From assembly GCA_963663995.1 (NCBI GenBank), contig OY760660.1:1500001-1532000 (forward strand): a stretch of DNA of 32,000 bases, in the 5' to 3' direction. A program made the position numbers and the translations under genes. Under the pieces are notes generated by a model. That model had not been told where the DNA came from. It ran no database searches and saw nothing but the letters and a program-made list of their open reading frames with translations. Source of the DNA: Erysipelotrichaceae bacterium (GTDB lineage: Bacteria > Bacillota_I > Bacilli_A > Erysipelotrichales > Erysipelotrichaceae). Within the stretch, counting starts at the first letter, position 1. The number at the start of each line of letters is the position of its first letter. Of the stretch, positions 1-26,053 are shown piece after piece.

Positions 1-398
1 ACTATAATTTCAATAAACATCACTATACTGGATTAAGGGCTTACGGATCTTCAAAAACAGCTCAGCTATTGAGTGTTTTAGTATTAAATGAAGATAAAAA
101 TTATAAAAACATGAGATTTTTGTGCATGCATCCTGGGGATGTTAAAAGCGATATTGGCAAAAATAATGGGTTCTTGTATCGTCTATTTAGTAAATTATTT
201 ATACAACCAATGCTCAGAGATCCGAAAACAAGTGCGATAGCTATTCATTGTTTATTATCAGATCCATTTTATCGAGAGCAACATGAACAATTCTATCATT
301 TAACAATACCAGAAATCGCAGCGAATCATGCGCGAGATTATGTTAAAGCTCAAGAGCTTATCGAACTATCGAATAAACTAATAAATGATTTTATTTAA
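1..398 (+). CDS. SDR-family oxidoreductase, C-terminal part (the 5' end lies upstream of the window)
   Basis: Frame 3 is open from nt 3. The translation reads ...HHYTGLRAYGSSKTAQLL..., with the Tyr-x-x-x-Lys catalytic motif of short-chain dehydrogenases at nt 42-56, followed by MHPGDVKS (HPG-x-V). The TTG at 69 in the ORF track is therefore internal, not the start. Confidence 0.6.
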   Translation, partial: YNFNKHHYTGLRAYGSSKTAQLLSVLVLNEDKNYKNMRFLCMHPGDVKSDIGKNNGFLYRLFSKLFIQPMLRDPKTSAIAIHCLLSDPFYREQHEQFYHLTIPEIAANHARDYVKAQELIELSNKLINDFI

Positions 399-466
399 TT
401 AATAAAGACAAATTAATGTATCGAAGTTATTAATTACCAAGTACAATTATCAAAAAAGCAAACTAG

Positions 467-494
467 TTGTTTTATACAACAAAACATGTAATAA
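467..494 (+). promoter_or_regulatory. Candidate sigma-A promoter for the MarR-led operon, with an overlapping imperfect inverted repeat
   Basis: TTGTTT (467-472), 16-nt spacer, TAATAA (489-494), with a TG just upstream. The inverted repeat AGTTGT-TTTAT-ACAAC (465-480) overlaps the -35 and would suit a MarR operator. Confidence 0.3.
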
Positions 495-514
495 TACGAA
501 TAAAGAGGTTTATT

Positions 515-937
515 ATGCTATTTTGTGATATTAGTATTCAACATAGATACGGTAAAAATAAATTGGATGAAATGCTTTTTAAGTATGGTTTAGACTGGTC
601 AAGAATGACAGTTATTCTAGTCGTGTCAGAAGTACCAGGAATAGAGCAAAATAAATTAATTCCTTTTTTACAGACAGATAAAGCTAATGTTTCAAAATTG
701 TTGAAAAAGATGGTTAATGAGAACTTAATCATTTTAAATCATAATGCAATAGATAAACGAATTAACAAGTGTTATTTGACAGAAAAGGGCAATGAATTCG
801 TGCCTAAAATGAATGAAATTTTAAGTGCTTGGGAATCGATTCTTTTTTCAGGAATAAAAGAAGATGAGCTTCAAGTTTATCTAAAGGTTAGTCAGAAAGT
901 ATCAAATAATCTTTTGCCAAATTGGGAGAATAAATAA
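515..937 (+). CDS. MarR-family transcriptional regulator
   Basis: Winged-helix region (QNKLIPFLQTDKANVSKLLKKMVNENLIILNHNAIDKRINKCYLTEKG) of typical MarR length. The start is moved to the ATG at 515, preceded by AAAGAGG. The stop overlaps the next start (TAATG at 935-939). Confidence 0.8.
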   Translation: MLFCDISIQHRYGKNKLDEMLFKYGLDWSRMTVILVVSEVPGIEQNKLIPFLQTDKANVSKLLKKMVNENLIILNHNAIDKRINKCYLTEKGNEFVPKMNEILSAWESILFSGIKEDELQVYLKVSQKVSNNLLPNWENK

Positions 938-2712
938 TGGGAATTCAAGGGAAAACTCTTTATGGGTTAATTTTATCTGGTGCAAATAATATTGTAGTAA
1001 ATGAAAATTTGTTAAATAAGATAAATGTTTATCCAGTACCCGATGGGGATACAGGTACAAATTTATCGCTTACAATGAATCAGATTCTTCTTGAGGCAAA
1101 AGAATTTGAACATGTTTTTATGCAAATCGAAAATATTGCAGAGATTGCTCTTAAAAATGCATATGGTAATTCAGGTATGATTTTTGCAGAATATTTAAGT
1201 GGTATGTCAGATTCTTTAATAAACCAAAAAGAGATACTAAAAATTGATTTGATAAAAGCCTTTAAAAATGCGTATTCTAAAGCACATAAATCGGTAGCAC
1301 AACCTAAAGAGGGAACAATTTTAAGTGTTATGAAGATTTGGTCCGAATTATTAGAAACCTCAATACATGATGAATTAGAACACTTATTTAACAGTAATCT
1401 GGAAAAACTTTATAAGTCAGTCGAAAATACAAAAAATCAAATGAAAATTCTTAGAGACAATAATGTTGTAGATGCCGGCGCTATGGCTTTCTTCTTTTTT
1501 ATTGAAGGAATGACTAAGTTCTTGAAAAATGGATTATCAATGAATCTCGAATTCAAAGCATCAAAAATGGAATTGATTAGTGAACCGTTAAAGTCCCTTG
1601 ATATTGGTGCTTATAGATATTGTTGTCAATATCAAGTAAAAGGAAATATTGATGTTAAAGAACTAGAAAAAGAGATTAATCCATATGGTGATTCAATTGT
1701 CATCCATCAAGATAATTCAAACATTAGTATTCATATGCATGCAAATGATCCTGCAATGCTTATGCAAAAACTTTTATCTATAGGTCCTGTTCTAAAACAC
1801 AAGATAGACGACATGTATTTGCAAACTCATATGAAGCATAAGCCAAAATCCAAAATTGCTATTTTAACTGATTCTATTGCAGATATACCTTCTACACTAA
1901 TTGATGATAACCAAGTCGCTGTATTACCTTTAAATATTATTATCGACTCAATTGTCTATAAGGATAAAATCACGATGACAGCTGACTACTTCTATAATTA
2001 TCTTGATGATTTCAGATTAAGTCCAACATCTTCTCAACCTAATACTGAGAGTATAGAACGTTATTTAAAACAAATATTGAACAATTATGATGAAGTTATT
2101 GGAATTTTTGTATCGTCTGAAATGAGTGGTACTTACAGTAATATTTTAAAAGCATTAGATAAATTAGACACAAAGAATAAAAAGATAAAAATAATAGACT
2201 CAAAAAGTAATTCTGCTGCTCAAGGATTGATTGTTTACGAAACTGTATTAAAACGGAATGAAGGATTAAATTTTGACGACCTTGTTGAATATATTGAGAG
2301 ATTAATAGAGAAGTCTGAAATTTTTGTCAGTGTTAAAGATTTAAAGTACATGATTAAAGGTGGAAGAGTTTCAAAAGTGACAGGTCAATTACTTTCATTT
2401 ATTAAACTAAAACCTGTAATATCGATTGATAAAAATGGGAAAGGTATTATTCCTTATAAAACATTAAGTCAAAAAAGTGCTATTAATGCAATTTCAAAAA
2501 AACTATCTAATGATATGAAAGAATTTGGTATTTCAAAGTATTCGTTAGTTTATGCAGACAATGAAATAGATCTTAGCGAACTTAAGCGTGTTGCTGAAGA
2601 AATCATCGGCAAAAAACCTGAATATGTAGAGTGTATATCACCGATTGTTGGCTTGAATGCAGGTAAGGGTGCGTTTGCGATAGCGTACTTAAAGAATGGA
2701 GTAAGTAAATGA
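937..2712 (+). CDS. Dak2 (DhaL/FakA-like kinase) domain fused to a complete DegV (FakB-like fatty-acid-binding) domain
   Basis: N-terminus: VYPVPDGDTGTNL, AYGNSGMIF, PKEGTILSV and VVDAGAMAF, which are the Dak2/FakA nucleotide-binding motifs. Middle: YRYCCQY...GDSIVIHQD...ISIHMHANDP, resembling the FakA middle domain. C-terminal ~290 aa: KIAILTDSIADIP...TSSQPN...VSSEMSGTYSN...DSKSNSAAQG...LKYMIKGGRVSK, which are typical DegV motifs. Confidence 0.8.
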   Translation: MGIQGKTLYGLILSGANNIVVNENLLNKINVYPVPDGDTGTNLSLTMNQILLEAKEFEHVFMQIENIAEIALKNAYGNSGMIFAEYLSGMSDSLINQKEILKIDLIKAFKNAYSKAHKSVAQPKEGTILSVMKIWSELLETSIHDELEHLFNSNLEKLYKSVENTKNQMKILRDNNVVDAGAMAFFFFIEGMTKFLKNGLSMNLEFKASKMELISEPLKSLDIGAYRYCCQYQVKGNIDVKELEKEINPYGDSIVIHQDNSNISIHMHANDPAMLMQKLLSIGPVLKHKIDDMYLQTHMKHKPKSKIAILTDSIADIPSTLIDDNQVAVLPLNIIIDSIVYKDKITMTADYFYNYLDDFRLSPTSSQPNTESIERYLKQILNNYDEVIGIFVSSEMSGTYSNILKALDKLDTKNKKIKIIDSKSNSAAQGLIVYETVLKRNEGLNFDDLVEYIERLIEKSEIFVSVKDLKYMIKGGRVSKVTGQLLSFIKLKPVISIDKNGKGIIPYKTLSQKSAINAISKKLSNDMKEFGISKYSLVYADNEIDLSELKRVAEEIIGKKPEYVECISPIVGLNAGKGAFAIAYLKNGVSK

Positions 2713-3476
2713 TTAATGAGACATTGATTTTAATCATTATGATTTATTTTACAATTTGGTTTGTGATAAACACTAAATTAAAAAATGCGGGTCTAATTGA
2801 TATTGCATGGGGTTCTGGTTTTGTCGTATTAGCGATCACACAACTCATTAAATATCCTAGTTCACTAGGAGTAATCCTCTTTTTGATGGTAGCCATTTGG
2901 GGATTGAGATTAAGTTATCATATAGGGAAAAGAAACATAAATAAACCTGAAGATCACCGTTATCAAAAATTCCGAGAAGATTGGGGAAAATCCTATTTGC
3001 TTCGCTCAATTTTTCAAATTTATGGCTTACAAGCAATACTGATGTTAATTGTTTCGACTTCGTTTCTTGATGGGATAATGCAAGCAGAACTTAGATCTCT
3101 TATCGGTTTATTCTGTGGTATTACTTTATATATAGTTGGTTTAATCTTTGAAATTATTTCTGACTATCAAATGGAACAGTTTAAAAAAGATAAAAAGAAT
3201 AGAGGGAAGCTAATGACAAGTGGTTTATGGTCATTAAGTCATCATCCGAACTATTTTGGAGAAGCAACGCTGTGGCTTGGAATAGCCATATCTTCTTTAT
3301 CTCTTGGCTCAAGTTTTGTCGCAATGATAGGCGCATTTACGATTTTCTATTTAGTGAGATTTTTATCAGGCACACCATTAATGGAAAAGAGAATTCGTGA
3401 GTATCAAGGTTTTGAAGCTTATGCAAAAGTAGTACCAATTTTTTTTCCAAAATTGAAAGGAACACTAAAAAAATGA
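2709..3476 (+). CDS. DUF1295 / steroid-5-alpha-reductase-like integral membrane protein
   Basis: Multi-TM protein with WGLRLSYHIGKRN..PEDHRYQKFRE, SDYQMEQFKKD and GLWSLSHHPNYFGEATLWLG motifs. ATGA overlap with the upstream gene. Confidence 0.8.
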   Translation: MINETLILIIMIYFTIWFVINTKLKNAGLIDIAWGSGFVVLAITQLIKYPSSLGVILFLMVAIWGLRLSYHIGKRNINKPEDHRYQKFREDWGKSYLLRSIFQIYGLQAILMLIVSTSFLDGIMQAELRSLIGLFCGITLYIVGLIFEIISDYQMEQFKKDKKNRGKLMTSGLWSLSHHPNYFGEATLWLGIAISSLSLGSSFVAMIGAFTIFYLVRFLSGTPLMEKRIREYQGFEAYAKVVPIFFPKLKGTLKK

Positions 3477-3871
3477 AATTTTTTCTTCACTTTGCAGTAA
3501 CATTTGTTGTATTTCTCGGTGTAGATCTATTATGGTTAGGATTTATCGCAAAAGATATCTATGCTAATGCTATTGGGCATCTAATGAGTCCTAACGTTAA
3601 TTGGTCAGCCGCAATAATTTTCTATATTATTTTTGTTATTGGTATTTTATATTTCGTCGTTGAACCAGCACTTGTTCATCAAGATATCATTAAGCTTCTT
3701 ATTGCGTCAGCTCTGTTTGGATTTGTATCCTATGCAACATTTGATCTAACCAGTCTTGCTACTTTGAAAGATTGGCCATTAAATATAACAATAATTGATT
3801 TGATTTGGGGAACTAGTTTATCTTTGCTTGTTTCTAGTATTTCGTATTATTTAATCAGATTAATTTCATAA
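3473..3871 (+). CDS. DUF2177-family small membrane protein
   Basis: 132 aa with four predicted TM segments. The VDLLWLGFIAKDIY N-terminus and YATFDLT motif are characteristic of DUF2177. ATGA overlap with the DUF1295 gene. Confidence 0.6.
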   Translation: MKFFLHFAVTFVVFLGVDLLWLGFIAKDIYANAIGHLMSPNVNWSAAIIFYIIFVIGILYFVVEPALVHQDIIKLLIASALFGFVSYATFDLTSLATLKDWPLNITIIDLIWGTSLSLLVSSISYYLIRLIS

Positions 3872-3890
3872 TTAGTCAAGGGAGACAAAT

Positions 3891-4835
3891 ATGTTCGCAA
3901 AACCTAAACTTCTAGTAAGTGATTGTCTTGGATTTAAAGCATGTCGATATGACGCATCACAAATAAATGCACCACTCATACAAGCGTTAGAGCCTTATGT
4001 TGAGTATATAAGAGTATGTCCAGAAGTGGCGATAGGATTGCCGATACCTAGAGATAGTTTAAGGCTGATACAAGATCTTGATCATCCAAAACTTGTTGTC
4101 TCAAAATCAGGTAATGATTTAACGGATGATATGAAGAACTTTTCAAATAAATTTTTGGGTAATTTACCCATGGTTCATGGATTTTTGTTGAAAAGCAGAT
4201 CACCCTCATGTGGAACGAAAGATGTTAAAGTATATCATACGTTTGGAGTATCAAGTGCAATCGGTAAGGGTAAAGGAATGTTTGCCCAAGAAGTCTATAA
4301 TCACTATCCAAATCATCCTATTGAAGAAGAGGGTAGACTAACTAACTTTGCGATTAGAGAGGAATACTTTTATAAGATATTTACACTAGCTGAGTTTGAT
4401 GAGTCCGTTAAAACAGTGAATGATTTAGTTAAGTTTCATACAAAACATAAGTATGCGATGATGTCGTATCAACCCTTGAAAATGACGGAGTTAGGACAAA
4501 TTGTCGCAAAATCGAATAAGAAAACACAAAGAAATGATATTGAAGATTATAAAAAAAGTCTTTATCGATTACTTTCGGAAACTACGAGTATTGGACGTAA
4601 TGTAAACACGTTAAGTCACCTCTATGGTTATTTCAAAGATAATTTAAATGATTTAGAAAAGGAACATTACTTCACAACACTTAAATTATACAAAAACCAA
4701 CAAATTCCTTTTTCAGTACCCATTTCGATTATTAATTCGTGGGCGCTTCGTTTCAAAAATGATTACTTATTAAACCAATCAATTTTAAATCCCTTTCCAA
4801 AGGAACTCATGAATCTACATGATAGTGGAAATTAA
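3891..4835 (+). CDS. YbgA-like protein (DUF523/TudS-like N-terminal domain plus DUF1722 C-terminal domain)
   Basis: N-terminus KPKLLVSDCLGFKACRYDAS...VCPEVAIGLPIPR...KSRSPSCG (Cys-rich DUF523 pattern). C-terminal helical part HTKHKYAMMSYQP...HLYGYFK resembles DUF1722. RBS GGGAGA lies upstream of the ATG. Confidence 0.7.
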   Translation: MFAKPKLLVSDCLGFKACRYDASQINAPLIQALEPYVEYIRVCPEVAIGLPIPRDSLRLIQDLDHPKLVVSKSGNDLTDDMKNFSNKFLGNLPMVHGFLLKSRSPSCGTKDVKVYHTFGVSSAIGKGKGMFAQEVYNHYPNHPIEEEGRLTNFAIREEYFYKIFTLAEFDESVKTVNDLVKFHTKHKYAMMSYQPLKMTELGQIVAKSNKKTQRNDIEDYKKSLYRLLSETTSIGRNVNTLSHLYGYFKDNLNDLEKEHYFTTLKLYKNQQIPFSVPISIINSWALRFKNDYLLNQSILNPFPKELMNLHDSGN

Positions 4836-4849
4836 TCAATAAGGAGAAG

Positions 4850-5473
4850 ATGATGAATTTAAAAGAAAAATATATTGATGCATTAAATGAAATTGATCAT
4901 GATAAGTGCATATTAATTCTAGATGAGTATTTAAGTCATAAAGATGCAAATATTGATGATACTTTTGATTTAGTATCACATGCTCTTTCACTTTCCGTGA
5001 ATTGTGAGACTGATGAAATTTGGACAGAACATGCAAAAACACAAATTGTTAGATCAAGTATTGAACTATTATCAGTTCATATTGTGAAAAAAACGCCACT
5101 AAAAAATAACGAAAAAATAGCGGTAATTTGCCCAAATGGAGAATATCACGAATTAGGCGCACGATTTGTCAGCGAAGCTATACGCAAAGAAGGATATAAC
5201 GCGCTCTTCTTAGGTAATAGTTTGCCTAATAAAGATATTGTCCAACTGGTAAAAGCATCTGATTTAAAAGCAATTGTTTTCAGTATTTCCAACTTTTTTA
5301 CAATGCATTCAATAAATACCGTCATAGATGAAATAAATAAAATAAAACCTGATTTAAAGATTATTCTTGGTGGTCAAGCAATTAATCAAAATCCAGGACA
5401 AATCCATGGAGAAAATTGTGAGCTCTGCACGACTTTTGACCAATTGAAGAGTACATTGGAGAATTTAAAATGA
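4850..5473 (+). CDS. Stand-alone cobalamin-binding protein: helical cap plus Rossmann B12-binding domain, CarH/LitR-type, with no DNA-binding domain
   Basis: Contains E-Y-H-E-L-G, then exactly 41 residues to S-I-S, then 26 residues to GG. This matches the (E/D)xHxxG-41-SxV/T-22..27-GG cobalamin-binding signature. An N-terminal ~95-aa helical segment carries W-T-E-H. The real start may be the second ATG at 4853, which has better spacing to AAGGAG. Confidence 0.75.
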   Translation: MMNLKEKYIDALNEIDHDKCILILDEYLSHKDANIDDTFDLVSHALSLSVNCETDEIWTEHAKTQIVRSSIELLSVHIVKKTPLKNNEKIAVICPNGEYHELGARFVSEAIRKEGYNALFLGNSLPNKDIVQLVKASDLKAIVFSISNFFTMHSINTVIDEINKIKPDLKIILGGQAINQNPGQIHGENCELCTTFDQLKSTLENLK

Positions 5474-6612
5474 AATTATCGTTTAATATTGCAAGACGAT
5501 TTTTAGCTTATAACAAAGGTCAAACACTGCTGATTGTATTGGGTATAGCGATTGGAATATCAGTTCAAATTTTTATTGGTCTGCTCATTTCTGGTCTACA
5601 AGATTCACTAATAGATAGCACGATTGGTAGTAGTGCACACATTACAATCAGTTCTGAAACAAGAGGTGAAAACTTTAACTTCGATGCTGATTATTTAAGC
5701 GAACTAAAAGATATGGAAAATTTTACACATGTTGGAGTAAGTGTTAGTGGTCCAGCTTTTGGTGTCTATGATGAGAAAAGTCAATCCATACTTCTTAGAG
5801 GTTTAGATGATGAAGTGCTTGATATCAACAATTTAGAAGGCAAAATCATAGAAGGAACATTAGATCTATATAGAGGAATTGTTATTGGTAAAGGTTTAGC
5901 TGAACAGTTAGAGATTGGTGTGAATGATGAATTAATCATTCAAACAATTAATAACAATACTTATAATCTTAATGTATCTGGAATTGCTGATTTTAAAGTC
6001 GCAGCACTCAATGATAGTTGGGTTATCTCTAAACCAATTGTTGTCCAAAATATTTTAGAATTAGCGGATCAAATTTCAGCAATTGAAATACAAGTTGACG
6101 AAGTATTTAATGCTGATTTATACGCTGCGAGTTTAAGCATACCAACAGGTTTATCAGTAATTGATTGGAAAGAACAAAACGCAGAGTTACTTTCTGGTTT
6201 AAATGGACAAAGTGTTTCTACGTATATGATTCAAGTTTTCGTACTGGTTTCGGTCGTTTTAGGCATTGCTTCAACTCTTGCGATTACTGTGCTTCAAAAG
6301 TCTAAACAAATTGGAATCTTAAAAGCGATGGGAATTCCTGATACTCAAGCATCCCTTATTTTTATATTTCAAGGAATAATTCTAGGTTTCTTAGGTGGTC
6401 TTCTTGGGATGGGCTTAGGTTATGGTTTATTAGAAATGTTCTCAACATTTGCGAAGGGAGCAGATGGGAATCCAATTATTCCAATTACCTTTGATTTACA
6501 ATTTATTTTATTCTCAGGATCAATTGCAGTTATATCATCATTTATCGCTTCACTAATCCCTGCAAGAAAATCACTTAAACTAACAGTTATTGAGGTAATA
6601 CGTAATGGCTAA
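5470..6612 (+). CDS. ABC transporter permease, FtsX/MacB/LolCE-like
   Basis: N-terminal TM, a large extracytoplasmic domain, and a C-terminal FtsX-type 3-TM bundle (KSKQIGILKAMGIPD...). ATGA overlap with the upstream gene. Confidence 0.8.
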   Translation: MKLSFNIARRFLAYNKGQTLLIVLGIAIGISVQIFIGLLISGLQDSLIDSTIGSSAHITISSETRGENFNFDADYLSELKDMENFTHVGVSVSGPAFGVYDEKSQSILLRGLDDEVLDINNLEGKIIEGTLDLYRGIVIGKGLAEQLEIGVNDELIIQTINNNTYNLNVSGIADFKVAALNDSWVISKPIVVQNILELADQISAIEIQVDEVFNADLYAASLSIPTGLSVIDWKEQNAELLSGLNGQSVSTYMIQVFVLVSVVLGIASTLAITVLQKSKQIGILKAMGIPDTQASLIFIFQGIILGFLGGLLGMGLGYGLLEMFSTFAKGADGNPIIPITFDLQFILFSGSIAVISSFIASLIPARKSLKLTVIEVIRNG

Positions 6613-7282
6613 AATATTAGAGCTTAAAAACATTTATAAATCTTATGGTAAAACAGAAGTATTACATGGGATTAGTTTTGAATTAGAAGAAGGATCATTT
6701 ACATCGATTATTGGTCAATCAGGTTCTGGTAAAAGTACATTGTTGAACATACTTGGAACATTAGATAATGCAAGTCGAGGTGACGTCACAATTGATGGCA
6801 CAGATGTTAAAACTTTAAAGAGTAAAAAACTAGCAGAGTTAAGAAACAATACACTTGGTTTTATTTTTCAATTTCACCATTTACTTCCAGAGTTTTCTGC
6901 CATTGAAAATATCTTGATGCCGATAAAAATTCAAAAAGGTAAAGTCACAAAAGACGACTTAGCATGGGCTGAAGAACTGATTGAAGTTGTGGGATTAAGT
7001 AAGGTTAAAAATAATAATGCTTTAAAAATGTCTGGGGGTCAGCAACAACGTACGGCTATTGCACGGGCACTAATGAATAAACCTAAGATGATCCTCGCCG
7101 ATGAGCCTACAGGTAATTTGGATAGTGATACAGCAGAAAGTATTTATCAATTGATGCGATCTGTTAATGAAAAATATAATATAAGTTTTCTGATTATCAC
7201 ACATGATCAAGCGATTGCCCAAAAAGCAGATCGAATTATTGAGATCAAAGATGGGAAAATTGTACTTGATGTTTCTAAATAA
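6605..7282 (+). CDS. ABC transporter ATP-binding protein (MacB/LolD-like)
   Basis: Walker A GQSGSGKST, signature LSGGQQQR (MSGGQQQR here), Walker B ILADEPTGNLD, H-loop ITHD. It overlaps the permease gene by 8 nt. Confidence 0.9.
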   Translation: MAKILELKNIYKSYGKTEVLHGISFELEEGSFTSIIGQSGSGKSTLLNILGTLDNASRGDVTIDGTDVKTLKSKKLAELRNNTLGFIFQFHHLLPEFSAIENILMPIKIQKGKVTKDDLAWAEELIEVVGLSKVKNNNALKMSGGQQQRTAIARALMNKPKMILADEPTGNLDSDTAESIYQLMRSVNEKYNISFLIITHDQAIAQKADRIIEIKDGKIVLDVSK

Positions 7283-7352
7283 ATACTAGTCAAGCAACAT
7301 AGTTACTCTTCAATCCTTTTCATAAAGAAGAGCTTAAGATATTAATAGACAT

Positions 7353-7390
7353 AAAAAAACTGGAATTCTATGATTGATTTCCAGTTTTTA
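7353..7390. terminator. Bidirectional rho-independent terminator between the convergent ABC operon and nrdJ
   Basis: A-run, stem ACTGGAA (7359-7365), 13-nt loop, stem TTCCAGT (7379-7385), T-run. Confidence 0.6.
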
Positions 7391-7397
7391 GTTTATT

Positions 7398-9908
7398 TTA
7401 TAATCCGCACTTAAGTTGAGCATTACAGTTGGTACATGTATTACATCCACCAATTTCCTCAACGGTACCTTCTAAACAGATAGGACAGATATCACCAACT
7501 TCAACACCGATATTTCGATCTTGTCTGTCAGCTCTCAAATCTGTTTTCTTTTCTTCAGGTTGTTGTTCTTTGACATTAACACCGAAGTCATGAACTAAGT
7601 CCATTTGAGCCCAGTTGTTATCACTGTCATTAGTAAGTGTTAGAACTTGAGAATCACGTGATCCATCAACGTAAACAGTTCCACCTTTTGCTTTACCATC
7701 ATATAATCTTTGATAAATACGTTGTACTTGTCTTACTGAGAATCCACGAGGTGCATTAACTGTTTTAGAGATTGATGAATCAATCCATCTTTGAATTGCA
7801 CATTGAACATCAGCATGCTCTTCAGGAGCTAAGTCCATAGCTGCGACAAAGTAGTCAGGTAAATTTTCACGTGTATATTCAGGGTTAAGTTTCAAGAAGT
7901 CATCGACGATTTGGGCATTTACTTCAATGAATTTGCCTAAGCGTCCTGAACGATAATAACTGAATGAGAAGTAAGGTTCTAAACCAGTCGACACACCGAC
8001 CATAGTTCCGGTAGAACCAGTCGGAGCGATTGTTAATAAGTGTGAGTTACGGATACCGTGTTTTAGAACTTCTTGTCTAATTTCTTCACTCATTTCTTTC
8101 ATATAACCAGTGTTAATGAAATCTTCACGAGATTCTAAGAAAGGGAATGAACCTTTTTCAGAAGCTAATTTAATTGAAGTCATATAAGCGGCTTCAGCGA
8201 TCGTCTTAAAGACTTGATCAATAGTTTTTAATGATTCAGGTGAACCATAACGAGTACGTGACCAAATTAGTAAGTCATGTAAACCCATAACGCCTAAACC
8301 AACACGACGTTCGCCTAAAGCTTGTGTCTTATTAGGTTCTAAGAAATAAGGAGTATCATCGATAACGTTATCTTGCATACGTACGGTTAAGGAAACAGTA
8401 TTCGCTAATTCTTCATAGAGAATTTCGCCAGTTTCACGATTAACAAAGTTAGCTAGGTTTACAGCCGCTAAGTTACATACTGAATATGGAGCTAATGGTT
8501 GTTCGCCACAAGGGTTTGTTGCGACAACTTTTTGTCCATAAGATTTAGCGTTTGTCATATCGTTAGCATTATCAATGAAGAAGATACCAGGTTCTGCAGA
8601 ATAAGTCGCACAGAAGTTGATTAAATCCCAAAGATCGCGTGCTTTGATGGTGCGATAAACTTTAACAGGATATCCCATTTCAGCCCATTCACGAACATCA
8701 CCAATCTCATGCCATCTAAGATCATAAACTTCTTTTTCCTCTTTCGAGAAGTTTTGAAGGTCTGGGAAACGTAATTCGAAATCACCATCGTTTTTAACTG
8801 CATCCATGAATTCTTTGGTTAGGGTAACGGAAATGTTAGCACCAGTTAAGAATTCAGGGTTAAGTACTTCTAAAGTACCACCATCAGCTAGTTTTTCACG
8901 AGCGTGATTAATAATATGTTGAGCAGCAGTTTTGCTTTCAGCTAACTCTTCATACATTTCTCTTTCTAAACGAGAGAATTCTTTATATTTAATATGCTTT
9001 TCAGCTTCTTTACGAATTTGTTCATCATTTGAATTTTCAATAAGCCATTTTAAGACTTTAGCATTTTGCATTTTCGAAATAATGAATTCAATAATATCTG
9101 GATGCCAGTCAGCCATCATGATCATTTGAGCACCACGACGTGAGCCACCTTGTTCAACAAGATGAGTCAAGTTAGCTAAATCATTTAACCAACTAACCGC
9201 ACCAGATGATTTACCACCAACCCCTTTTGCAGGGGCACCTTTTGGACGTAGGGTAGAACCATTAGTCCCAACACCACCTCCACGTGACATGATTTCCATA
9301 ACCTCTTTACGATGTTCAGAAATACCACCACGTGAGTCATGCACAAATGGCATAACGAAGCAGTTGAAGTAAGTAACTTGTGTCCCAGAACCGGCACCAA
9401 ATAAAACACGTCCAGCAGGAATAGTGTTCATCTTTTCTAATTGTTCAGAAAAGAGTTTTCCAAATTTTACTTTATCATCATCAGACTTCTCAGTAGAGGC
9501 TAATGCGTTACCGACACGGCGTGCAATTTGTTCATAATATATTTCAACGGGTTTATCAACTTGATGTAGAGGACGCTTAATAAGGCCGGTTTCGGCTTCG
9601 ATTTCATCATCTAATGATCCTCTAAACTCTTCTTCAAGTACGATTGAAACGATTTCATTTTCAATAGCTTGAACAGTTCCAATACCGCGTGAAGGGAATT
9701 TAGGGTCTTCTTTTACAACTGTAACAACGATATCACCCACACCTAAAGTTTTATGACTACGGTCTTTTTGTGCATAACGGTCAAGCATGACTAAACGAGA
9801 CACACCTTGGTGACTTAAGTTATCATCCTTTTCAATTGGATAAATATGCGGAAAATGCGTACTGATGTCCGCATTCAGCTTTTGTACTGTTACATCTGAA
9901 TACTTCAT
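7398..9908 (-). CDS. nrdJ: Class II (adenosylcobalamin-dependent) ribonucleotide reductase
   Basis: 836 aa with the RNR active-site region TNPCGEQPL...CNL. There is no ATP-cone and no adjacent beta subunit gene. The Cys-rich C-terminal tail ICPICLEGTVEEIGGCNTCTNCNAQLKCGL is typical of class II enzymes. It lies next to B12 salvage genes. Confidence 0.9.
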   Translation of the reverse strand: MKYSDVTVQKLNADISTHFPHIYPIEKDDNLSHQGVSRLVMLDRYAQKDRSHKTLGVGDIVVTVVKEDPKFPSRGIGTVQAIENEIVSIVLEEEFRGSLDDEIEAETGLIKRPLHQVDKPVEIYYEQIARRVGNALASTEKSDDDKVKFGKLFSEQLEKMNTIPAGRVLFGAGSGTQVTYFNCFVMPFVHDSRGGISEHRKEVMEIMSRGGGVGTNGSTLRPKGAPAKGVGGKSSGAVSWLNDLANLTHLVEQGGSRRGAQMIMMADWHPDIIEFIISKMQNAKVLKWLIENSNDEQIRKEAEKHIKYKEFSRLEREMYEELAESKTAAQHIINHAREKLADGGTLEVLNPEFLTGANISVTLTKEFMDAVKNDGDFELRFPDLQNFSKEEKEVYDLRWHEIGDVREWAEMGYPVKVYRTIKARDLWDLINFCATYSAEPGIFFIDNANDMTNAKSYGQKVVATNPCGEQPLAPYSVCNLAAVNLANFVNRETGEILYEELANTVSLTVRMQDNVIDDTPYFLEPNKTQALGERRVGLGVMGLHDLLIWSRTRYGSPESLKTIDQVFKTIAEAAYMTSIKLASEKGSFPFLESREDFINTGYMKEMSEEIRQEVLKHGIRNSHLLTIAPTGSTGTMVGVSTGLEPYFSFSYYRSGRLGKFIEVNAQIVDDFLKLNPEYTRENLPDYFVAAMDLAPEEHADVQCAIQRWIDSSISKTVNAPRGFSVRQVQRIYQRLYDGKAKGGTVYVDGSRDSQVLTLTNDSDNNWAQMDLVHDFGVNVKEQQPEEKKTDLRADRQDRNIGVEVGDICPICLEGTVEEIGGCNTCTNCNAQLKCGL

Positions 9909-9984
9909 ATTAAAAACCCCTCTTGATTGATACGTTTTATTTTATCATGAACCCTTATATAGCATTCATGAAAATGATTTACAT

Positions 9985-10446
9985 TTATAACTCTTTTGAA
10001 AAAATATAATCTGATAATCGATTCATATATTTTAGTATATCTAAATTTATACTCTGTGATAATGAATAAGCAATGATAGTTCTCTCGACTGTACGAACCT
10101 TAGCTCTCAACACATGTAAATGAGCTTTTAATTCATCATCGAAAGGGAAAATAAATTGATGCGTTAAATTCTGTTTTTTTGCGATTTCATCTTCGAAATA
10201 GTGGATATGTTCATTTAAATCAATATCAACTAAGTAGCCTGAAAGAACACTACTTATTTGATAGAGGTCTTGAACAATCATTTCCCATTCCTGTTTATCA
10301 AGCTGATGTTTGGATTGGAAGTAAATGATCTCACTCGATAATACGTCTAACTCACCAATAAGGTTTATTAAAGGATCGCTTTTGGATAAGCGTTTATTTT
10401 TGATATCAGTTTGACCAGTGTCGCCTTTTTTAGTAGTGATTGTCAT
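9985..10446 (-). CDS. PduO-type ATP:cob(I)alamin adenosyltransferase
   Basis: The N-terminus TKKGDTGQTDI...RLSKSDPLINLIGELDVLSSEI matches the TxxGDxGxT / ExxGxxDEL pattern of PduO-type adenosyltransferases. 153 aa. Confidence 0.75.
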   Translation of the reverse strand: MTITTKKGDTGQTDIKNKRLSKSDPLINLIGELDVLSSEIIYFQSKHQLDKQEWEMIVQDLYQISSVLSGYLVDIDLNEHIHYFEDEIAKKQNLTHQFIFPFDDELKAHLHVLRAKVRTVERTIIAYSLSQSINLDILKYMNRLSDYIFSKEL

Positions 10447-10948
10447 ATTTTGCTTTTCTCATCAGCTTTTCTACAACTAAGTAGAGTGGCTTGTATAAGA
10501 GTATTATAAGGATATAATTGCTTGTTGCGTGAACTAAATCAAAAAGCAGGCCACGTATCCAATATATGTATCCCATCGTAAACCCATATAACAGTGCATT
10601 TTGAAGAGCGAATAGAAAGCCAAACATAAAACCAAACAAAGCTCCAAGAATGGCCCAAATTTGTTCTCTATCTCTTGAGAAAGCTTTAAATATTTGGACA
10701 ATAATCATCCATAATGTCCATATCCATAGGTAAGCAATAACCCAATCTCCAAAGCCCCAAACTAGTGCTTCTAAAATAGTGAATATAAAAACCACAATCA
10801 GCGACTCTTTCCAAGTAATAAATTGAGCAATGATCAAGAACCACAAGGTTACAAGTTCAACATTGGGAAGCGAGGCTGCAGCTATTTGTATCACAAAGGC
10901 GGTGGCGGCGATAAGGGCTAATAAGACCCAACGCTTTAAAGAACGCAT
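10430..10948 (-). CDS. Small polytopic membrane protein, ECF-transporter S-component-like (candidate cobalamin-specific, CbrT-like)
   Basis: 172 aa, about 5-6 TM segments, aromatic/Gly-rich. It sits between the DUF4430 and adenosyltransferase genes, downstream of a cobalamin riboswitch. The substrate assignment comes from context only. Confidence 0.45.
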   Translation of the reverse strand: MRSLKRWVLLALIAATAFVIQIAAASLPNVELVTLWFLIIAQFITWKESLIVVFIFTILEALVWGFGDWVIAYLWIWTLWMIIVQIFKAFSRDREQIWAILGALFGFMFGFLFALQNALLYGFTMGYIYWIRGLLFDLVHATSNYILIILLYKPLYLVVEKLMRKAKYDNHY

Positions 10949-10949
10949 T

Positions 10950-11396
10950 TTAGTAAGCTGAAGTAAAATCTAATTCAAAGCTATCTTGATCGTATATACT
11001 TTGTAAATCAATACCATTACAGAAACCAGCTTCGACACAATCTTTATTGTTTTCTGAGTTAACTAACCACCATGGGCCAGTACTCATATCTTCAGTCGCA
11101 TATTCATTAATAGATATAATCATACGACCCCAAGCATCTGATTTTTCACCACTGTAATCTAAACTAAGTTCGTCGTAGAATTCATCGACTTCATCCAGTA
11201 ATTCTCCCAGTGTTTCTGAATCTGTATGAACGGTTTCTTCAAAGACGACAACATCACCATTTTCATTATCAACTACGATTGATAGTTGAATATCTTTTTC
11301 CCCAGGCATGGTTGGGAAAATAATGGGTTTTAATGCGAAATAAACAACGGCTGCTAAAGTTAAAGCGATAATCGCTCTAATATAATTTTTCTTCAT
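10950..11396 (-). CDS. DUF4430-like (transcobalamin beta-domain-like) membrane-anchored protein
   Basis: N-terminal TM anchor (MKKNYIRAIIALTLAAVVYF) and a C-terminal WGRMIISINEY...GPWWLVNSENN...IYDQDSFELDF pattern. The start is set at the ATG at 11396 (RBS AAAGGA), not at 11426. It is the first gene after the cobalamin riboswitch. Confidence 0.6.
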   Translation of the reverse strand: MKKNYIRAIIALTLAAVVYFALKPIIFPTMPGEKDIQLSIVVDNENGDVVVFEETVHTDSETLGELLDEVDEFYDELSLDYSGEKSDAWGRMIISINEYATEDMSTGPWWLVNSENNKDCVEAGFCNGIDLQSIYDQDSFELDFTSAY

Positions 11397-11413
11397 ATAG
11401 GCACATCCTTTCA

Positions 11414-11650
11414 ATAAAAAACACATCCTTAAGATGTGTAAAAAAGACGGTTTGTGTCTTTTTATCTTAAGTCCCAGAAGATAATGGATTTGCTTTTGTT
11501 GGCAGGTCTACTGGCTGATCGTTCATCCTTTAAGCACCTTCCCGAAATTCTCTTTCAGTGGTATCTTGCTTATCGTCACGACCTACAGTTGCTGGGACAG
11601 CTTTGTTTATTACAAATTCCCTATTGAGCTCTTAGAGCACCAAAGTAAGC
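11414..11650 (-). promoter_or_regulatory. Cobalamin (B12) riboswitch with terminator/antiterminator expression platform
   Basis: The minus-strand RNA contains GGUGC...AAUAGGGAA, GCUGUCCCAGCAACUGUAGG, AGAUACCACUG, GGGAAGG and the B12 box AGCCAGUAGACCUGCC (11501-11516). It ends in the hairpin ACACAUC-UUAAG-GAUGUGU plus a U-run (11414-11439). A TATAAT -10 element lies on the minus strand at 11657-11662. Confidence 0.85.
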
Positions 11651-11702
11651 ATGTTAATTATAGAGCATATTGTGGTAAATTAATGTGAAATTTCATAAAA
11701 AC

Positions 11703-12418: not shown

Positions 12419-14004
12419 CAGACTGTCGACAAAATAGTTGGCAGTCTTTTTTAATGATTTGGTAAAATAGAGGTATCAAAGAGAGTATAAATCTATGATC
12501 ACTAAAACCAATCAAAAAGCAGAAGAGATGAGTGTCATCATCTTAGAGAATTTCATCCCAGAAAACCATCTACTACGGAAAATTAATCAATGGATTAACT
12601 TCCGTTTTATTTATGATTTAGTGGAACCCTTATATTCCAAGATTGGACGTCCTAGTATTGAACCAGTCATTCTCTTTAAACTTCTATTCATAAATCATTT
12701 GTATGGATACAACAGTATGAGAAGAACGATTGAAGAAACGAAAGTAAACTTAGCGTATCGTTGGTTTATTGGGCTTAGTGTAGATGAAAAGATACCTCAC
12801 TTCTCTGATTTCTCAAAGAACTATACACGTAAGTTCTCTCAAGAGATAGAAGTGATGCATCCTCTAACAGGTGTCATTGAAGTCAAGACGGTCTTCGCAG
12901 CTGTCTTTGATCAAATACTACTTCAAGCGCACGAGAAGGACTTTATTCGAGCGGCTCATATCTATATGGATTCAACCCATATTAAAGCGAATGCGAATAA
13001 ACGAAAATCAGAAGAAGTTAAGATTCTCGAAGAACGAAAACACTATCAAGATGCCTTAAATCAAGAGTGTGATGAGTATAGTGAATATAAAGGAATTAAG
13101 ATAGCTAAGGAACCCATTCTTAAAGAAAAACGAATCAAGCAAAGTACGGTTGATCCTGAGAGTGGAAACTTCCATAAAGGTGAACACGAGAAACAATTTG
13201 CTTATTTAGCGCAGACAGCCTGTGATGAGAATGGCTTTATTCTAGGGGTCAAAGTGAATCCAGGGAATCTTCATGACAGTACGACGTTTAGTGAAGCTTT
13301 TGATGAAGTCCATCAAGTCTATGGTCAAAACATACGAAGTATTGGACTAGATGCTGGGTATAAAGCACCCTATATCGCACGTGAGTTAATAGAACGAAAG
13401 ATTACGCCTTTAATGCCTTATAGTCGACCTAAAGGCAGAAAGAATAATGAAGATGAGTTGAAAGTCGTTAAGAAAGAATTTAAATATGATAAGAGTGCAG
13501 ATGTCTATCTTTGTCCACATGGAAAGCGTTTAAGTCCAAGAAGTATAAATAAAGAAACAGGTTATATCACTTATCGAAGTACCACAAAAGACTGTAAGAG
13601 CTGTCCACTCAGAGATCATTGTCTATCTAAAAGCAGTTCAACTAAAACGGTCCAAAGACATCTATGGCAGTCTTATATGGATGAAGTAGAAATGATCCGT
13701 CATACTTCATATCATTCGCTCTATTATCCCAAACGAAAACAAACCATTGAGCGTATCTTTGGGGATGGGAAAGAGAAACATGGACTAAGATATACCCGCT
13801 ATAAAGGACTCAAGAAGGTACAAGATTATACGTATCTGCTTTTCGCTTGTATGAATATGAAAAAAATAGCGATTTGGAGTGACCGTAAAGCACTCGCTAC
13901 CACACTTAATTCGCTGTTTTATTCATTTTTAAAGCCATTGATCCAAAGAAAAACGAGGTTATCGTTTTCTTTCAACGTTTAACCCCGTATTTGTCTACAG
14001 TCTG
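12419..14004 (+). mobile_element. IS1182-family insertion sequence (1586 bp)
   Basis: Imperfect terminal inverted repeats: CAGACTGTCGACAAAATA (left) and CAGACTGTAGACAAATA (reverse complement of the right end). It has a single DDE transposase ORF and is flanked by a 19-bp direct repeat. A hairpin plus T-run at 12420-12452 lies just inside the left end. Confidence 0.8.
12495..13982 (+). CDS. IS1182-family (IS5-like) DDE transposase
   Basis: The N-terminal domain (NHLLRKINQWINFRFIYDLVEPLYSKIGRPSIEPVILFKLLFINHLYGYNSMRRTIEE...LAYRWFIGL) is typical of IS1182/IS5 transposases. Also present are DSTHIKANAN, LDAGYK and a C-terminal ERIFGDGKEKHGLRYTRYKGLKKV motif. Confidence 0.85.
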   Translation: MITKTNQKAEEMSVIILENFIPENHLLRKINQWINFRFIYDLVEPLYSKIGRPSIEPVILFKLLFINHLYGYNSMRRTIEETKVNLAYRWFIGLSVDEKIPHFSDFSKNYTRKFSQEIEVMHPLTGVIEVKTVFAAVFDQILLQAHEKDFIRAAHIYMDSTHIKANANKRKSEEVKILEERKHYQDALNQECDEYSEYKGIKIAKEPILKEKRIKQSTVDPESGNFHKGEHEKQFAYLAQTACDENGFILGVKVNPGNLHDSTTFSEAFDEVHQVYGQNIRSIGLDAGYKAPYIARELIERKITPLMPYSRPKGRKNNEDELKVVKKEFKYDKSADVYLCPHGKRLSPRSINKETGYITYRSTTKDCKSCPLRDHCLSKSSSTKTVQRHLWQSYMDEVEMIRHTSYHSLYYPKRKQTIERIFGDGKEKHGLRYTRYKGLKKVQDYTYLLFACMNMKKIAIWSDRKALATTLNSLFYSFLKPLIQRKTRLSFSFNV

Positions 14005-14394: not shown

Positions 14395-15639
14395 CTATCC
14401 TAACATTTCATCCTGCATTTTTCTAAGTTTCCATACAGTTGTTGATGTATCTAATGCTACATCTTCTTCACTAATGAAGGTTCCTTTAGCGATATCGCGT
14501 TTTGCGACAACATTTCCAGAAATTAAACCGATAGGAACTAAATTCTTTTCTTTAACAACAACGTGATCTTCAATTACACCACGTACACAGAAACCACCAA
14601 TACCATCTAGTCTTTCTCCAGCTTTAATGTCTTTTTTCGCAACAGCGACTGTATCAGATACTTGACCACATAATGGAACGATTGAATGTTCACCTTTAAG
14701 GACAGCTTTTGCGATTGAAATAGGTGTTTCAAGTGAACCTAAGTGATAAGGACGATAAATGATTTGATGATCATTGTCAGTTTTATTCATATAACGGAAT
14801 GTTTCATCAGCCATTTTTGTTTTAGCTTTAACGATAACGAATACACCAGGAGCAATACCATCGACATATTCGACACAGCCATAGTTATTAAGGACGCCAC
14901 CTTCATCTTTAGTACGAAGTTGGGCAACAGTTCCTTTTAAGTCACCAGATACACCATGCATACCTGTAACATCAGCTTTATAACCAATCGCATTGGATAA
15001 TAAAGTCATTTCAGCCATTGTTTTTGTACCATCAGCAAATGCAGCTAACATATGAGCTGCCATGTGACGATCTGATGCTTCTTGAGCAACCGTATCAGGA
15101 TTTGCTTCAATACGTAATTTGTTGTTTTTTCCTTTACCAGCAACAAGTACTTCCATACCCATTGATTTAGCGAATTCATATAATTCGAAGGTTGCGGCAG
15201 GTTCATCACCATCGGATCCTGTGTAGGATAGTCCGGCAGCTTGGAATAGTTTGTAAAGTAATGGACCAACTGTAATATCGATTTCTACATTAAGTAGAAC
15301 AACGTGCTTTTTAGAGATTAAGCACTCCATGCAGATTTTAGCACCGACTTCAGGAACGCCTGTTGCGTCAACTACAACATCCACATTTTCGTTTTGGATA
15401 ACTTCTCTAAAGTTTGTAGTTGTAAGTGTATCTACCTTAATTGTTGCATTATTTGCAAACTCTTCAGCAGCTTTCTTAGCGTTATCTAAGTTAATATCAC
15501 TAACACCTGTTACCACCATGCCTGGGATTGTAGCGATTTGAGAGATCATGCCTCGACCCATTTGGCCAGCACCGATAACTCCGACGCGAATTGGATTGTT
15601 ATTAGTTTCGCGTTCTAATAATTCTTGATAAATTGTCAT
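14395..15639 (-). CDS. NAD(P)-dependent oxidoreductase, homoserine-dehydrogenase-like with a C-terminal SAF domain (COG4091-type), copy 1
   Basis: Rossmann motif VGVIGAGQMGRGM at the N-terminus. C-terminal SAF-like part: VAVAKKDIKAGERLDGIGG...VAKRDIAKGTFIS. The start is moved to the ATG at 15639 (RBS GGAAAGG), which aligns with the start of the paralogue at 27323. The 47-codon extension in the ORF track covers the promoter. Confidence 0.7.
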   Translation of the reverse strand: MTIYQELLERETNNNPIRVGVIGAGQMGRGMISQIATIPGMVVTGVSDINLDNAKKAAEEFANNATIKVDTLTTTNFREVIQNENVDVVVDATGVPEVGAKICMECLISKKHVVLLNVEIDITVGPLLYKLFQAAGLSYTGSDGDEPAATFELYEFAKSMGMEVLVAGKGKNNKLRIEANPDTVAQEASDRHMAAHMLAAFADGTKTMAEMTLLSNAIGYKADVTGMHGVSGDLKGTVAQLRTKDEGGVLNNYGCVEYVDGIAPGVFVIVKAKTKMADETFRYMNKTDNDHQIIYRPYHLGSLETPISIAKAVLKGEHSIVPLCGQVSDTVAVAKKDIKAGERLDGIGGFCVRGVIEDHVVVKEKNLVPIGLISGNVVAKRDIAKGTFISEEDVALDTSTTVWKLRKMQDEMLG

Positions 15640-15669
15640 ATAGTTACCTTTCCATGATAAAGAATCATC

Positions 15670-15683
15670 TGTAAACGCCTTCA
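15670..15683. promoter_or_regulatory. cre-like (CcpA) site immediately downstream of the oxidoreductase/srlB promoter -10
   Basis: TGTAAACGCCTTCA has one mismatch to the TGWAANCGNTNWCA consensus. Confidence 0.4.
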
Positions 15684-15711
15684 TCATAGAACGATGATTT
15701 TTCGATGTCAA
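15683..15711 (-). promoter_or_regulatory. Sigma-A promoter for the oxidoreductase-srlB transcription unit
   Basis: On the minus strand: TTGACA (15711-15706), 17-nt spacer, TATGAT (15688-15683). Confidence 0.5.
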
Positions 15712-15728
15712 TTTTGTTAATGCATATG

Positions 15729-15740
15729 TAACAAATGTGA
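15729..15740. promoter_or_regulatory. 12-bp palindromic operator-like motif, site 1 (TAACAAATGTGA)
   Basis: One of four occurrences of T[A/C]ACA-AA-TGT[T/G]A in regulatory DNA in this window. It lies about 17 nt upstream of the minus-strand -35. Confidence 0.35.
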
Positions 15741-15790
15741 ATATTTGGTAATATTGTGAATAGATGAAAAGATTTATCAAGTTGTTTTTG

Positions 15791-24506: not shown

Positions 24507-25184
24507 ATGTCTTACAAATATATCAATTTCAAATCATTAATTCCATATCTTGAAGGACTCAAACTACAAGCTATAGCTTTTGATAAAGTATTAAATCAAG
24601 AAGCGAAAGGCATATTGTTGATTCTTGAACATGAAGCTGTTTATACCATTGGTAAAGATGGTGGTTGGAATAATTTGCTTGAATCAAAAGATGTTTTGAA
24701 TGAAGAAGGAATTGATGTAGTGGAAGTGAATCGTGGAGGTAATATTACTTTTCATGGACCTGGACAGATTGTTTTATATCCCATCTTAGATTTGAATTAT
24801 TTGGGGAAAGATATTCATTTATTTATTGACAATTTAGAGAAATCGATTATTGAGACACTAAAAAATTTTGATATTGAAGCTACTCAAAAACCAAAGTATC
24901 GAGGGGTGTGGGTAGACGATCAAAAAATAGCAGCGGTAGGTGTTCATATATCAAAATGGATTAGCTCACATGGCATTGCTTTTAATATTAATGTGGATAA
25001 GCGTAATTTTGATCGAATAACTCCTTGTGGCTTAAAGGATTTTAGAGTTGTTTCATTGGATGAGTATAAAGGAAGACAATCGATTGAAAACATCAAAGAA
25101 TTGTTAATTCAAAGTTTTGAATCAATATTTAAACTAAAGTTTGAAGAAACAAGTGAAGATTACTTAAGTGAGGAAAATAGATGA
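24507..25184 (+). CDS. lipB: Octanoyltransferase LipB
   Basis: [38 protein letters not shown] (catalytic Lys) and TPCGL (catalytic Cys). It overlaps the lipA start by 4 nt. Confidence 0.85.
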
Positions 25185-26050
25185 GCACTGAAATAAAAAG
25201 ACCGGATTGGTTAAGAAAGAAAATATCTCATGTCGAGAATATAGATGAAACTTTTAATATCCTAAAACGTTTATCACTTAATACAGTTTGTGATAGTGCC
25301 ATGTGTCCTAATATTGGTGAATGCTACGGCAATAAGACAGCCACTTTTATGATATTAGGGAATGTTTGTACGCGTGTTTGTCGTTTTTGTGCAGTCCCTA
25401 AAGGGCGAACGGAAATGGTGGATGTTGATGAACCCAGACATATTGGAGAAGCATGTAAAGAATTAGCTTTGAAACATGTTGTCGTAACATCGGTAACACG
25501 TGATGATTTAAAAGGTGGGGGAGCTCAACATTTTGCGAATGTTATAAACGAAATTCGGAAAAGTAATCCAAAAACGACGATTGAAGTATTAATTCCAGAT
25601 TTAAAAGGTAACTGGGATGCTTTAAAAATAATCGTAGATGCAAAACCAGATATCATTAATCACAATACTGAAACCGTTAAAAGTCTCTATTCAGTGGTTA
25701 GACCTGTCGCTATTTACGATCGATCACTAGAACTTCTAAAAACAGTGAAGGAAATGGATCCTAATATCTATACTAAATCAGGCATAATGGTTGGACTTGG
25801 ATAAACAGATCCAGAAGTATTTACTTTAATGGATGATTTAAGAAAGAATAACGTTGATATTATGACGATTGGCCAATATCTACAACCAACATCTAAACAC
25901 TTGGATGTAAAAGAATATGTACATCCAGATAAGTTTGAATATTATAAAAATATAGCAGAAGAAAAAGGTTTCTTATATGTTGCCTCTGGTCCATTTGTGA
26001 GAAGTTCATATAATGCGGCGATTGGAATTGATAAGGTAAGAGCTTTATAA
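25181..26050 (+). pseudogene. lipA: Lipoyl synthase LipA interrupted by a single in-frame TAA (25802-25804)
   Basis: ORFs 25181-25804 and 25829-26050 are in the same frame. The read-through translation is ...[37 protein letters not shown]...[10 protein letters not shown]. The stop replaces the Glu of the conserved GLGET motif (GAA to TAA). Both Cys motifs ([12 protein letters not shown] and CTRVCRFC) lie in the N-terminal part, and the RSSY motif lies in the C-terminal part. Confidence 0.8.
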
Positions 26051-26053
26051 AAG

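Follow-up and report, generated by a model that had tools for sequence, protein, structure and literature searches.

The B12-binding protein gene and its locus

A window of 32,000 nucleotides (nt) from an Erysipelotrichaceae bacterium (assembly GCA_963663995.1, contig OY760660.1, positions 1,500,001 to 1,532,000 of the forward strand) was analyzed here, with a focus on a gene encoding a stand-alone cobalamin (B12)-binding protein and on the ATP-binding cassette (ABC) transporter encoded directly downstream of it (Table 1). Hereafter, "the window" denotes this whole stretch, and "the module" denotes the three consecutive genes encoding the B12 protein, an FtsX/MacB_PCD permease, and an ABC ATPase. 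The B12 gene is a genuine open reading frame (ORF) of 207 amino acids (aa), for which the public gene call P0001 begins at the second Met and yields 206 aa. It is preceded by a strong Shine-Dalgarno sequence (AAGGAG, 5–8 nt upstream) and separated by 14 nt from the preceding DUF523/DUF1722 gene, and its TGA stop shares the sequence ATGA with the ATG start of the permease gene, giving a 4-nt overlap. Promoter and terminator scans of positions 1–7600 stayed at chance level and provided no operon boundaries. Moreover, no cobalamin riboswitch was detected 5' of the module in the window or at 21 other loci, so riboswitch control of the module was rejected and the idea of a role in uptake was weakened.

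Table 1. Positions of the genes and RNA element around the B12-binding protein, numbered within the window
Feature	Position	Strand	Remark
MarR-family regulator	467..937	+	First gene after SDR in the co-directional run
FakA (Dak2)-DegV/FakB fusion, fatty-acid kinase-like	937..2712	+	In several lineages likewise beside the module
DUF1295 membrane protein (steroid reductase/ICMT-like)	2709..3476	+	
DUF2177 membrane protein	3473..3871	+	
DUF523 (2-thiouracil desulfurase-like) and DUF1722 fusion	3891..4835	+	
Stand-alone CarH-like cobalamin-binding protein	4850..5473	+	Four-helix bundle with WxEH and Rossmann B12 domain, E-x-H-x-x-G/S-x-S/G-G
FtsX/MacB_PCD permease, LolF/LolE-like (type VII ABC)	5470..6612	+	Conserved downstream partner
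LolD-like ABC ATPase	6605..7282	+	Completes the conserved three-gene module
Class II (B12-dependent) ribonucleotide reductase	7398..9908	-	Convergent with the module
PduO-type ATP:cob(I)alamin adenosyltransferase	9985..10446	-	Possible adenosylcobalamin supply
Cobalamin riboswitch	11484..11659	-	Heads the minus-strand operon, not the B12-sensor module

Conserved linkage to a type VII ABC transporter

Pfam analysis assigned PF12704 and PF02687 to the permease and PF00005 to the ATPase. The best match of the permease in the PDB was LolF (1.7e-15), and its score with the lolCE profile was 105 bits against a cut-off of 362, while the ATPase was closest to LolD with 268 bits against an equivalog cut-off of 308. 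On its domains, the downstream pair is classed as a type VII ABC transporter of the MacB/LolCDE/LolDF kind, with scores that do not reach the equivalog cut-offs for lipoprotein release by LolCDE or LolDF.

The order of B12 gene, FtsX/MacB_PCD permease, and ABC ATPase was found at all 27 genome loci, which comprised Erysipelotrichaceae metagenome-assembled genomes, Herbivorax, Pseudobacteroides cellulosolvens, Acetivibrio alkalicellulosi, Christensenellaceae, and other Clostridia; the named strains that harbor the module and have public assemblies are P. cellulosolvens DSM 2933, A. alkalicellulosi DSM 17461, and Herbivorax sp. ANBcel31. In a further set of 80 metagenome loci, picked solely by similarity of the B12 protein, the permease was present in 65 of the 66 loci with at least 600 nt of downstream sequence (the lone exception being L091), and permease and ATPase were both present wherever at least 2200 nt were available (45/45). 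A reverse search starting from the permease led to the same arrangement, as each of three homologues (53–55% identity) had a B12-binding gene upstream with a 4-nt overlap. Altogether, the linkage between the B12 gene and the transporter was seen in more than 100 Bacillota loci, and the loci bearing the module spanned 28–60% GC and at least 14 sequence clusters, all of which retained the WxEH and E-x-H-[ED]-x-G motifs. This conserved gene order suggests that the functional partner of the B12 protein is probably the ABC transporter encoded directly downstream, an assignment in which we have good confidence. Some longer family members (P0066, P0084, P0089, and others) were also considered as possible fusions and rejected, with no extra Pfam domain and no permease or ATPase similarity; they look like mis-called ORFs.

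Fold and closest relatives of the B12 protein

A word-indexed search returned 16 close homologues, and an exhaustive profile search, clustered at 50% identity, extended the family to 62 clusters with E<1e-30 and 1802 with E<1e-10. The AlphaFold2 model of the 207-aa protein, built on the 16 homologues, reached a predicted local distance difference test (pLDDT) value of 91.2 and a predicted template modelling (pTM) score of 0.88. It consists of a four-helix bundle as cap (helices at residues 4–13, 17–28, 35–48, and 54–81) followed by a Rossmann domain at residues 89–205, in agreement with the helical cap and Rossmann B12 domain proposed in the sequence-only reading of this gene. The sole Pfam domain (E<=0.01) was PF02310, the B12-binding domain, at residues 89–189 (E 2.8e-14); the same scan gave no match to the PF02607 cap and none to any helix-turn-helix (HTH) domain, as expected from the earlier statement that the protein has neither a MerR nor another HTH domain.

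Structure comparison with Foldseek revealed that the best 50 matches in the PDB were all B12 photoreceptor domains (TtCarH, photocobilin, CtMerR, and LitR), with photocobilin giving the highest template modelling score (TM-score) of 0.77–0.80. Corrinoid proteins, which the sequence-only reading had named as the best matches that would speak against its assignment, were absent from these 50. At the sequence level, CarH was the top NCBIfam profile (6e-11), ahead of the corrinoid proteins, with all profiles far under their cut-offs. The family profile retrieved photocobilin first from the PDB sequences (4.6e-11), followed by 4jgi (a corrinoid protein), CtMerR, MtaC, and CarH, with AerR weaker (E 6.5e-6). 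In addition, the cap segment containing the EH pair aligned to the EH of photocobilin and CtMerR, whereas the alignment to 4jgi spanned the cap without matching the EH. These results favor the proposed likeness to CarH/LitR rather than to methyltransferase corrinoid proteins, and the 207-aa protein is very probably a CarH/LitR-type cobalamin module without a DNA-binding domain, that is, a CarH-like cobalamin sensor domain.

Motifs and invariant residues

The motif that provides the lower ligand reads E98-Y-H100-E-L-G103 and is followed after 41 residues by S145-I-S147 and after a further 26 residues by G174-G175, exactly the motifs and spacings that had been read from the sequence earlier, and helix 4 of the cap holds W58-T-E60-H61. 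The first three elements correspond to the His-on B12 pattern D/E-x-H-x-x-G ... S-x-L ... G-G. Conservation over 68 diverse family members, whose mean column identity was 33%, revealed only seven invariant residues, namely W58, E60, H61, E98, H100, G122, and G175. Five of the seven (E60, H61, H100, G122, and G175) belong to the photoreceptor signature or to the classic B12 motif, and the remaining two, E98 and W58, adjoin motif residues. The invariant set therefore suggests selection on the sites that serve CarH-type proteins in holding the lower His ligand and in reading the upper adenosyl group.

The signature of light-responsive cobalamin domains comprises the motifs GxxW, EH, GxxH, and GxxxP, represented in TtCarH by W131, E141, H142, and H177 (PMC11796333); the E141/H142 pair contacts the adenosyl group. 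Three of the four motifs are present in the window protein: EH (E60-H61), GxxH (G97-E-Y-H100), and GxxxP (G122-N-S-L-P126), with P126 conserved in at least 90% of members. The GxxW motif is missing, as the positions 10 and 13 residues before the Glu are occupied by V50 and S47, respectively, and the invariant W58 lies at -2 instead; the shifted Trp spacing of the cap W-T-E-H noted from the sequence was thus reproduced. Both tryptophans occur in CtMerR, which is light-responsive by experiment and carries NIWEEH, and the MerR-fused relatives at loci L028 and L029, which carry Wx9EH, form a separate and more distant group. On these features we conclude that the B12 protein would act as a CarH-type sensor domain and, with neither a DNA-binding domain nor GxxW, falls short of full membership in the CarH/LitR family.

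Cysteines form a further conserved feature of the family. Cys94, in the context C-P-x-x-E-x-H, is nearly invariant, and at residues ~50–65 the clostridial members (L017–L027 and most metagenome loci) have a conserved Cys directly before I/V-W-x-E-H and a second Cys ~10 residues before it. These conserved residues could indicate a redox or ligand role.

Light-related genes and regulators around the module

In Erysipelotrichaceae, the module was accompanied by genes for photolyase, DUF1295, DUF2177, the FakA-DegV fusion, and DUF523/DUF1722, and genes from this set occurred in different orders beside the module in at least three distant lineages. At the distant loci L043 and L056, the FakA-DegV, DUF1295, and DUF2177 genes adjoin the module, and at the equally distant L080 and L092, a photolyase and an ICMT/DUF1295-like protein are encoded near it, together with MsrAB in L080 and a PNPOx-family gene in L092. 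The trio of DegV, DUF2177, and DUF1295 has been reported to characterize heliorhodopsin neighbourhoods, along with photolyase and cobalamin-binding proteins (bioRxiv 10.1101/2021.02.16.431466). A precedent for coupling light to transport is also available, as one heliorhodopsin has been reported to bind an ABC transporter whose activity rises in the light (PMC11109279).

The window itself has no photolyase gene. In L006, a relative with 85% identity, two short photolyase-like fragments of 62 and 44 aa (5012-5307, minus strand) lie 5' of the MarR gene and apparently represent a decayed photolyase gene.

A MarR gene was found beside the module only in the window genome (L001 being the same sequence) and in L006. 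No regulator is adjacent at L002, L003, and L007–L009, elsewhere in Erysipelotrichaceae the module is preceded by an AraC-type gene or by housekeeping genes, and the annotated Clostridia loci have unrelated and variable neighbours. Locus L056 encodes, divergently from its B12-FtsX-ABC-FakA/DegV-DUF1295-DUF2177 operon, a 296-aa protein (858-1748, minus strand) that combines an XRE-type HTH with a B12-binding_2 domain plus a B12-binding domain and in which both Wx9EH and WxEH are present; a similar XRE-HTH-B12 regulator at L106 (9-227, minus strand) is cut by the contig end. By its domains, the L056 protein resembles a CarH-like regulator whose DNA-binding domain is not of the MerR type. Since the L056 operon would then have its own CarH-like transcription factor, the stand-alone protein could be free for a non-transcriptional role.

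B12-related neighbours and other observations in the window

Downstream of the module, a minus-strand run (7398-11659) contains, in the direction of reading, the cobalamin riboswitch, two small protein genes, the PduO gene, and the class II ribonucleotide reductase (RNR) gene, and the convergent arrangement with the RNR is kept in the two closest Erysipelotrichaceae clusters. The nearby PduO adenosyltransferase proposed in the sequence-only reading is confirmed, and the B12 uptake operon proposed alongside it is plausible, with the two small genes giving no Pfam or NCBIfam match; the labels "ECF S-component" and "DUF4430" considered for these two genes were left unconfirmed by the same databases. 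The PduO, RNR, and riboswitch neighbours could supply adenosylcobalamin (AdoCbl) or hint at sensing of B12 status. Co-transcription of the RNR gene with the riboswitch operon would mean that a B12-dependent enzyme is repressed by B12; a separate promoter may lie in the 77-nt gap preceding the RNR gene. In L001, the class II RNR appears as two ORFs (8820-11331, minus strand) versus one in the window, with a frameshift distinguishing the two assemblies of this one organism.

Several further features were observed in the window. A lipA-like gene (25181-26060, plus strand) has an in-frame TAA at 25802-25804 (G-L-G-*-T-D), at a position where LipA generally has G-L-G-E-T, and the frame runs on for ~85 residues, so that it is either a pseudogene or affected by a sequencing error. 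An IS-type transposase (DUF772 and DDE_Tnp_1; 12495-13982, plus strand) is an intact 495-aa ORF in the window and is split into two genes in the metagenome copy L001. Moreover, two paralogous proteins of 411–461 aa with long near-identical stretches are encoded at 14395-15780 and 26088-27323 (both minus strand); the copy in the relative L002 matches NAD_binding_3/DRL_cat/SAF, and one of the two window genes adjoins a glucitol-type phosphotransferase system (PTS) cluster.

Proposed role and alternative explanations

The likeness to CarH and the linkage to the transporter can be combined into a model in which the CarH-like cobalamin sensor serves a type VII ABC transporter as its dedicated accessory subunit on the cytoplasmic side and would be in contact with it, a composite for which we hold the chances to be evenly balanced. 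The 207-aa protein would have lost, or never had, a DNA-binding domain, and its cofactor is probably AdoCbl. The upper cobalt ligand would be the intact adenosyl group in the dark and would be lost after light or when AdoCbl is absent; this ligand state would then change the conformation or oligomeric state of the B12 protein, and the altered protein would in turn affect ATPase activity or transport, with the nucleotide-binding subunit as the likeliest point of contact. In the window, the module may form the tail of a gene run for photo-oxidative stress and lipid remodelling (MarR, FakA-DegV, DUF1295, DUF2177, and DUF523/DUF1722), and with this placement light would be the likeliest signal in the window genome. 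Whether light or B12 or redox status is the signal is close to a coin toss. A more far-reaching version of the model, a tentative one that we place on the unlikely side, holds that the WxEH proteins are photosensory or AdoCbl-sensing subunits of widespread, previously unrecognised three-component type VII ABC transporters of Bacillota, in which light-driven loss of the adenosyl group would directly gate the ATPase or mechanotransmission.

Several observations weigh against this model. The protein has no counterpart of the GxxW tryptophan (W131 in CarH, which packs on the adenosyl group), and AdoCbl binding and CarH-like photochemistry are accordingly at the stage of prediction. Most Clostridia loci have no light-related neighbours, and some of the metagenome loci belong, by contig name, to sediment or activated-sludge assemblies, so light may not be a family-wide signal. 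Furthermore, no natural fusion of the B12 domain to a permease or an ATPase was found among the inspected proteins, and a cytoplasmic cobalamin-binding subunit of this kind is not known from type VII ABC transporters.

The same protein could instead be bound to the same transporter and tune it not to light but to B12 availability or to the oxidation state of the cobalt, which we regard as rather improbable. The sediment and sludge contigs fit this alternative, as do the examined Clostridia loci lacking photolyase or other nearby light genes, the PduO, B12-dependent RNR, and cobalamin riboswitch operon found next to the module in the window as well as in close relatives, and the near-invariant Cys94 and the conserved Cys-x-W of Clostridia, which could be redox-active. 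On the other hand, the residues found to be invariant here serve in photoreceptors to read the upper (adenosyl) ligand, several lineages show the association with photolyase and the heliorhodopsin-type trio, and AdoCbl in such a pocket is generally known to be inherently photolabile.

A role in corrinoid trafficking is a second alternative, with the B12 protein as a cytoplasmic carrier that passes cobalamin or another tetrapyrrole to or from the ABC transporter for uptake or efflux. The canonical His-on B12 motif, the tight linkage to an ABC transporter, and the B12 salvage genes nearby in the window agree with such a carrier, and FtsX-type pumps are generally known to handle tetrapyrroles, as HrtBA does heme and MacAB protoporphyrin. 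Nevertheless, we consider it quite improbable, given that the module, unlike the adjoining B12 operon, has no cobalamin riboswitch 5' of it in the window or at 21 other loci, that type VII transporters generally load from the outer leaflet or periplasmic side rather than from the cytoplasm, and that the conserved EH and W residues of the cap would be superfluous for plain carriage.

The sequence-only reading had suggested instead that the protein modulates the MarR regulator heading the operon, in the manner of AerR, as a light-dependent antirepressor. The combination of a stand-alone cap and B12 domain is indeed that of AerR, the MarR gene is co-directional and overlaps the next gene of the same run, and CrtR, a MarR-type regulator, can reportedly mediate light-induced expression. 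This proposal was not supported and now appears very unlikely: no regulator is conserved beside the module, as only the window genome and L006 have the MarR gene there, conservation points to the ABC transporter as partner, and the match to AerR was weaker than those to photocobilin, CtMerR, and CarH. Finally, a function in methyl transfer, as an MtaC/MtbC-like corrinoid protein for a methyltransferase whose gene lies elsewhere, is highly implausible, for although one homologue was automatically named "methanogenic corrinoid protein MtbC1", 4jgi and MtaC rank among the top PDB sequence matches, and TIGR02370 matched at E 3.5e-9, the scores were 36 bits against a cut-off of 215 for TIGR02370 and 31 against 420 for MtaC, the residue before the His is Glu and not Asp, the 50 best fold matches contained only photoreceptor domains, and no methyltransferase genes were seen in any Pfam-annotated neighbourhood.

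Implications

The known outputs of B12 photoreceptors are DNA-binding domains, diguanylate cyclases and similar signalling domains, and antirepressors. A cobalamin sensor wired to an ABC transporter would, if the proposed role is correct, add a post-translational output on membrane transport to B12 photobiology, and it would give the first regulatory handle for many Gram-positive Lol/MacB-like transporters as well as a possible link to the unexplained "light" gene set of DegV, DUF2177, and DUF1295 around heliorhodopsins. Should the tentative gating by light also be correct, the module would be the first case of a B12 photoreceptor whose output is a transporter and not transcription or a second messenger, and it would act in a programme of photo-oxidative membrane-lipid repair. 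The literature searched contained no account of a cobalamin-binding protein linked to an ABC transporter of the Lol/MacB (FtsX) type. Moreover, the SignatureFinder signature demands GxxW (PMC11796333), so the family would probably escape a strict search with all four motifs, and the diversity of B12 photoreceptors may thus be under-counted. The module is also compact (~207, 380, and 225 aa) and could be useful as a green-light-controlled transporter switch.

Comparison with known systems

With the CarH/LitR domain (TtCarH, 5C8D/8C31; CtMerR, 8JBS), the window protein shares the helical bundle and Rossmann fold, the E-x-H-E-x-G motif with Glu, the EH in helix 4, and the GxxH and GxxxP motifs, and like CtMerR it has a tryptophan two residues before the EH. 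It differs in having no MerR or other DNA-binding domain, no GxxW (W at -10), and a cap too divergent for PF02607, and its genomic partner is an ABC transporter and not an operator or promoter. The photocobilins (SasPcob, 8J2W/8J2X) provide the best PDB sequence match and the top TM-score, with the EH aligned, but they carry a C-terminal globin-like domain that binds biliverdin, whereas the window protein ends after the Rossmann fold.

Stand-alone B12-domain proteins such as AerR are light-dependent antirepressors of a separate DNA-binding protein. Like AerR/PpaA, the window protein is a stand-alone cap and B12 domain that would act through another protein; unlike them, it has no conserved transcription-factor partner, and its likely partner is the transporter. 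The OcHeR-OmrDE system, in which a photoreceptor is encoded beside an ABC transporter and modulates it post-translationally (PMC11109279), is similar at the gene level, and the heliorhodopsins and window-type modules have a similar neighbourhood (DegV, DUF2177, DUF1295, and photolyase). The components are different, with a membrane retinal protein and a type IV exporter in that system and a soluble cobalamin protein and a type VII FtsX/MacB-like transporter here.

The LolDF, LolCDE, and MacB systems have the same FtsX and MacB_PCD permease and a LolD-like ATPase, with scores under the equivalog cut-offs in the present case; most of the Bacillota hosts are expected to be monoderm and hence to have no sorting of lipoproteins to an outer membrane. 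Taken together, the CarH-type domain itself is known, and what appears to be new is a module of the B12 photoreceptor type with a probable non-transcriptional partner.

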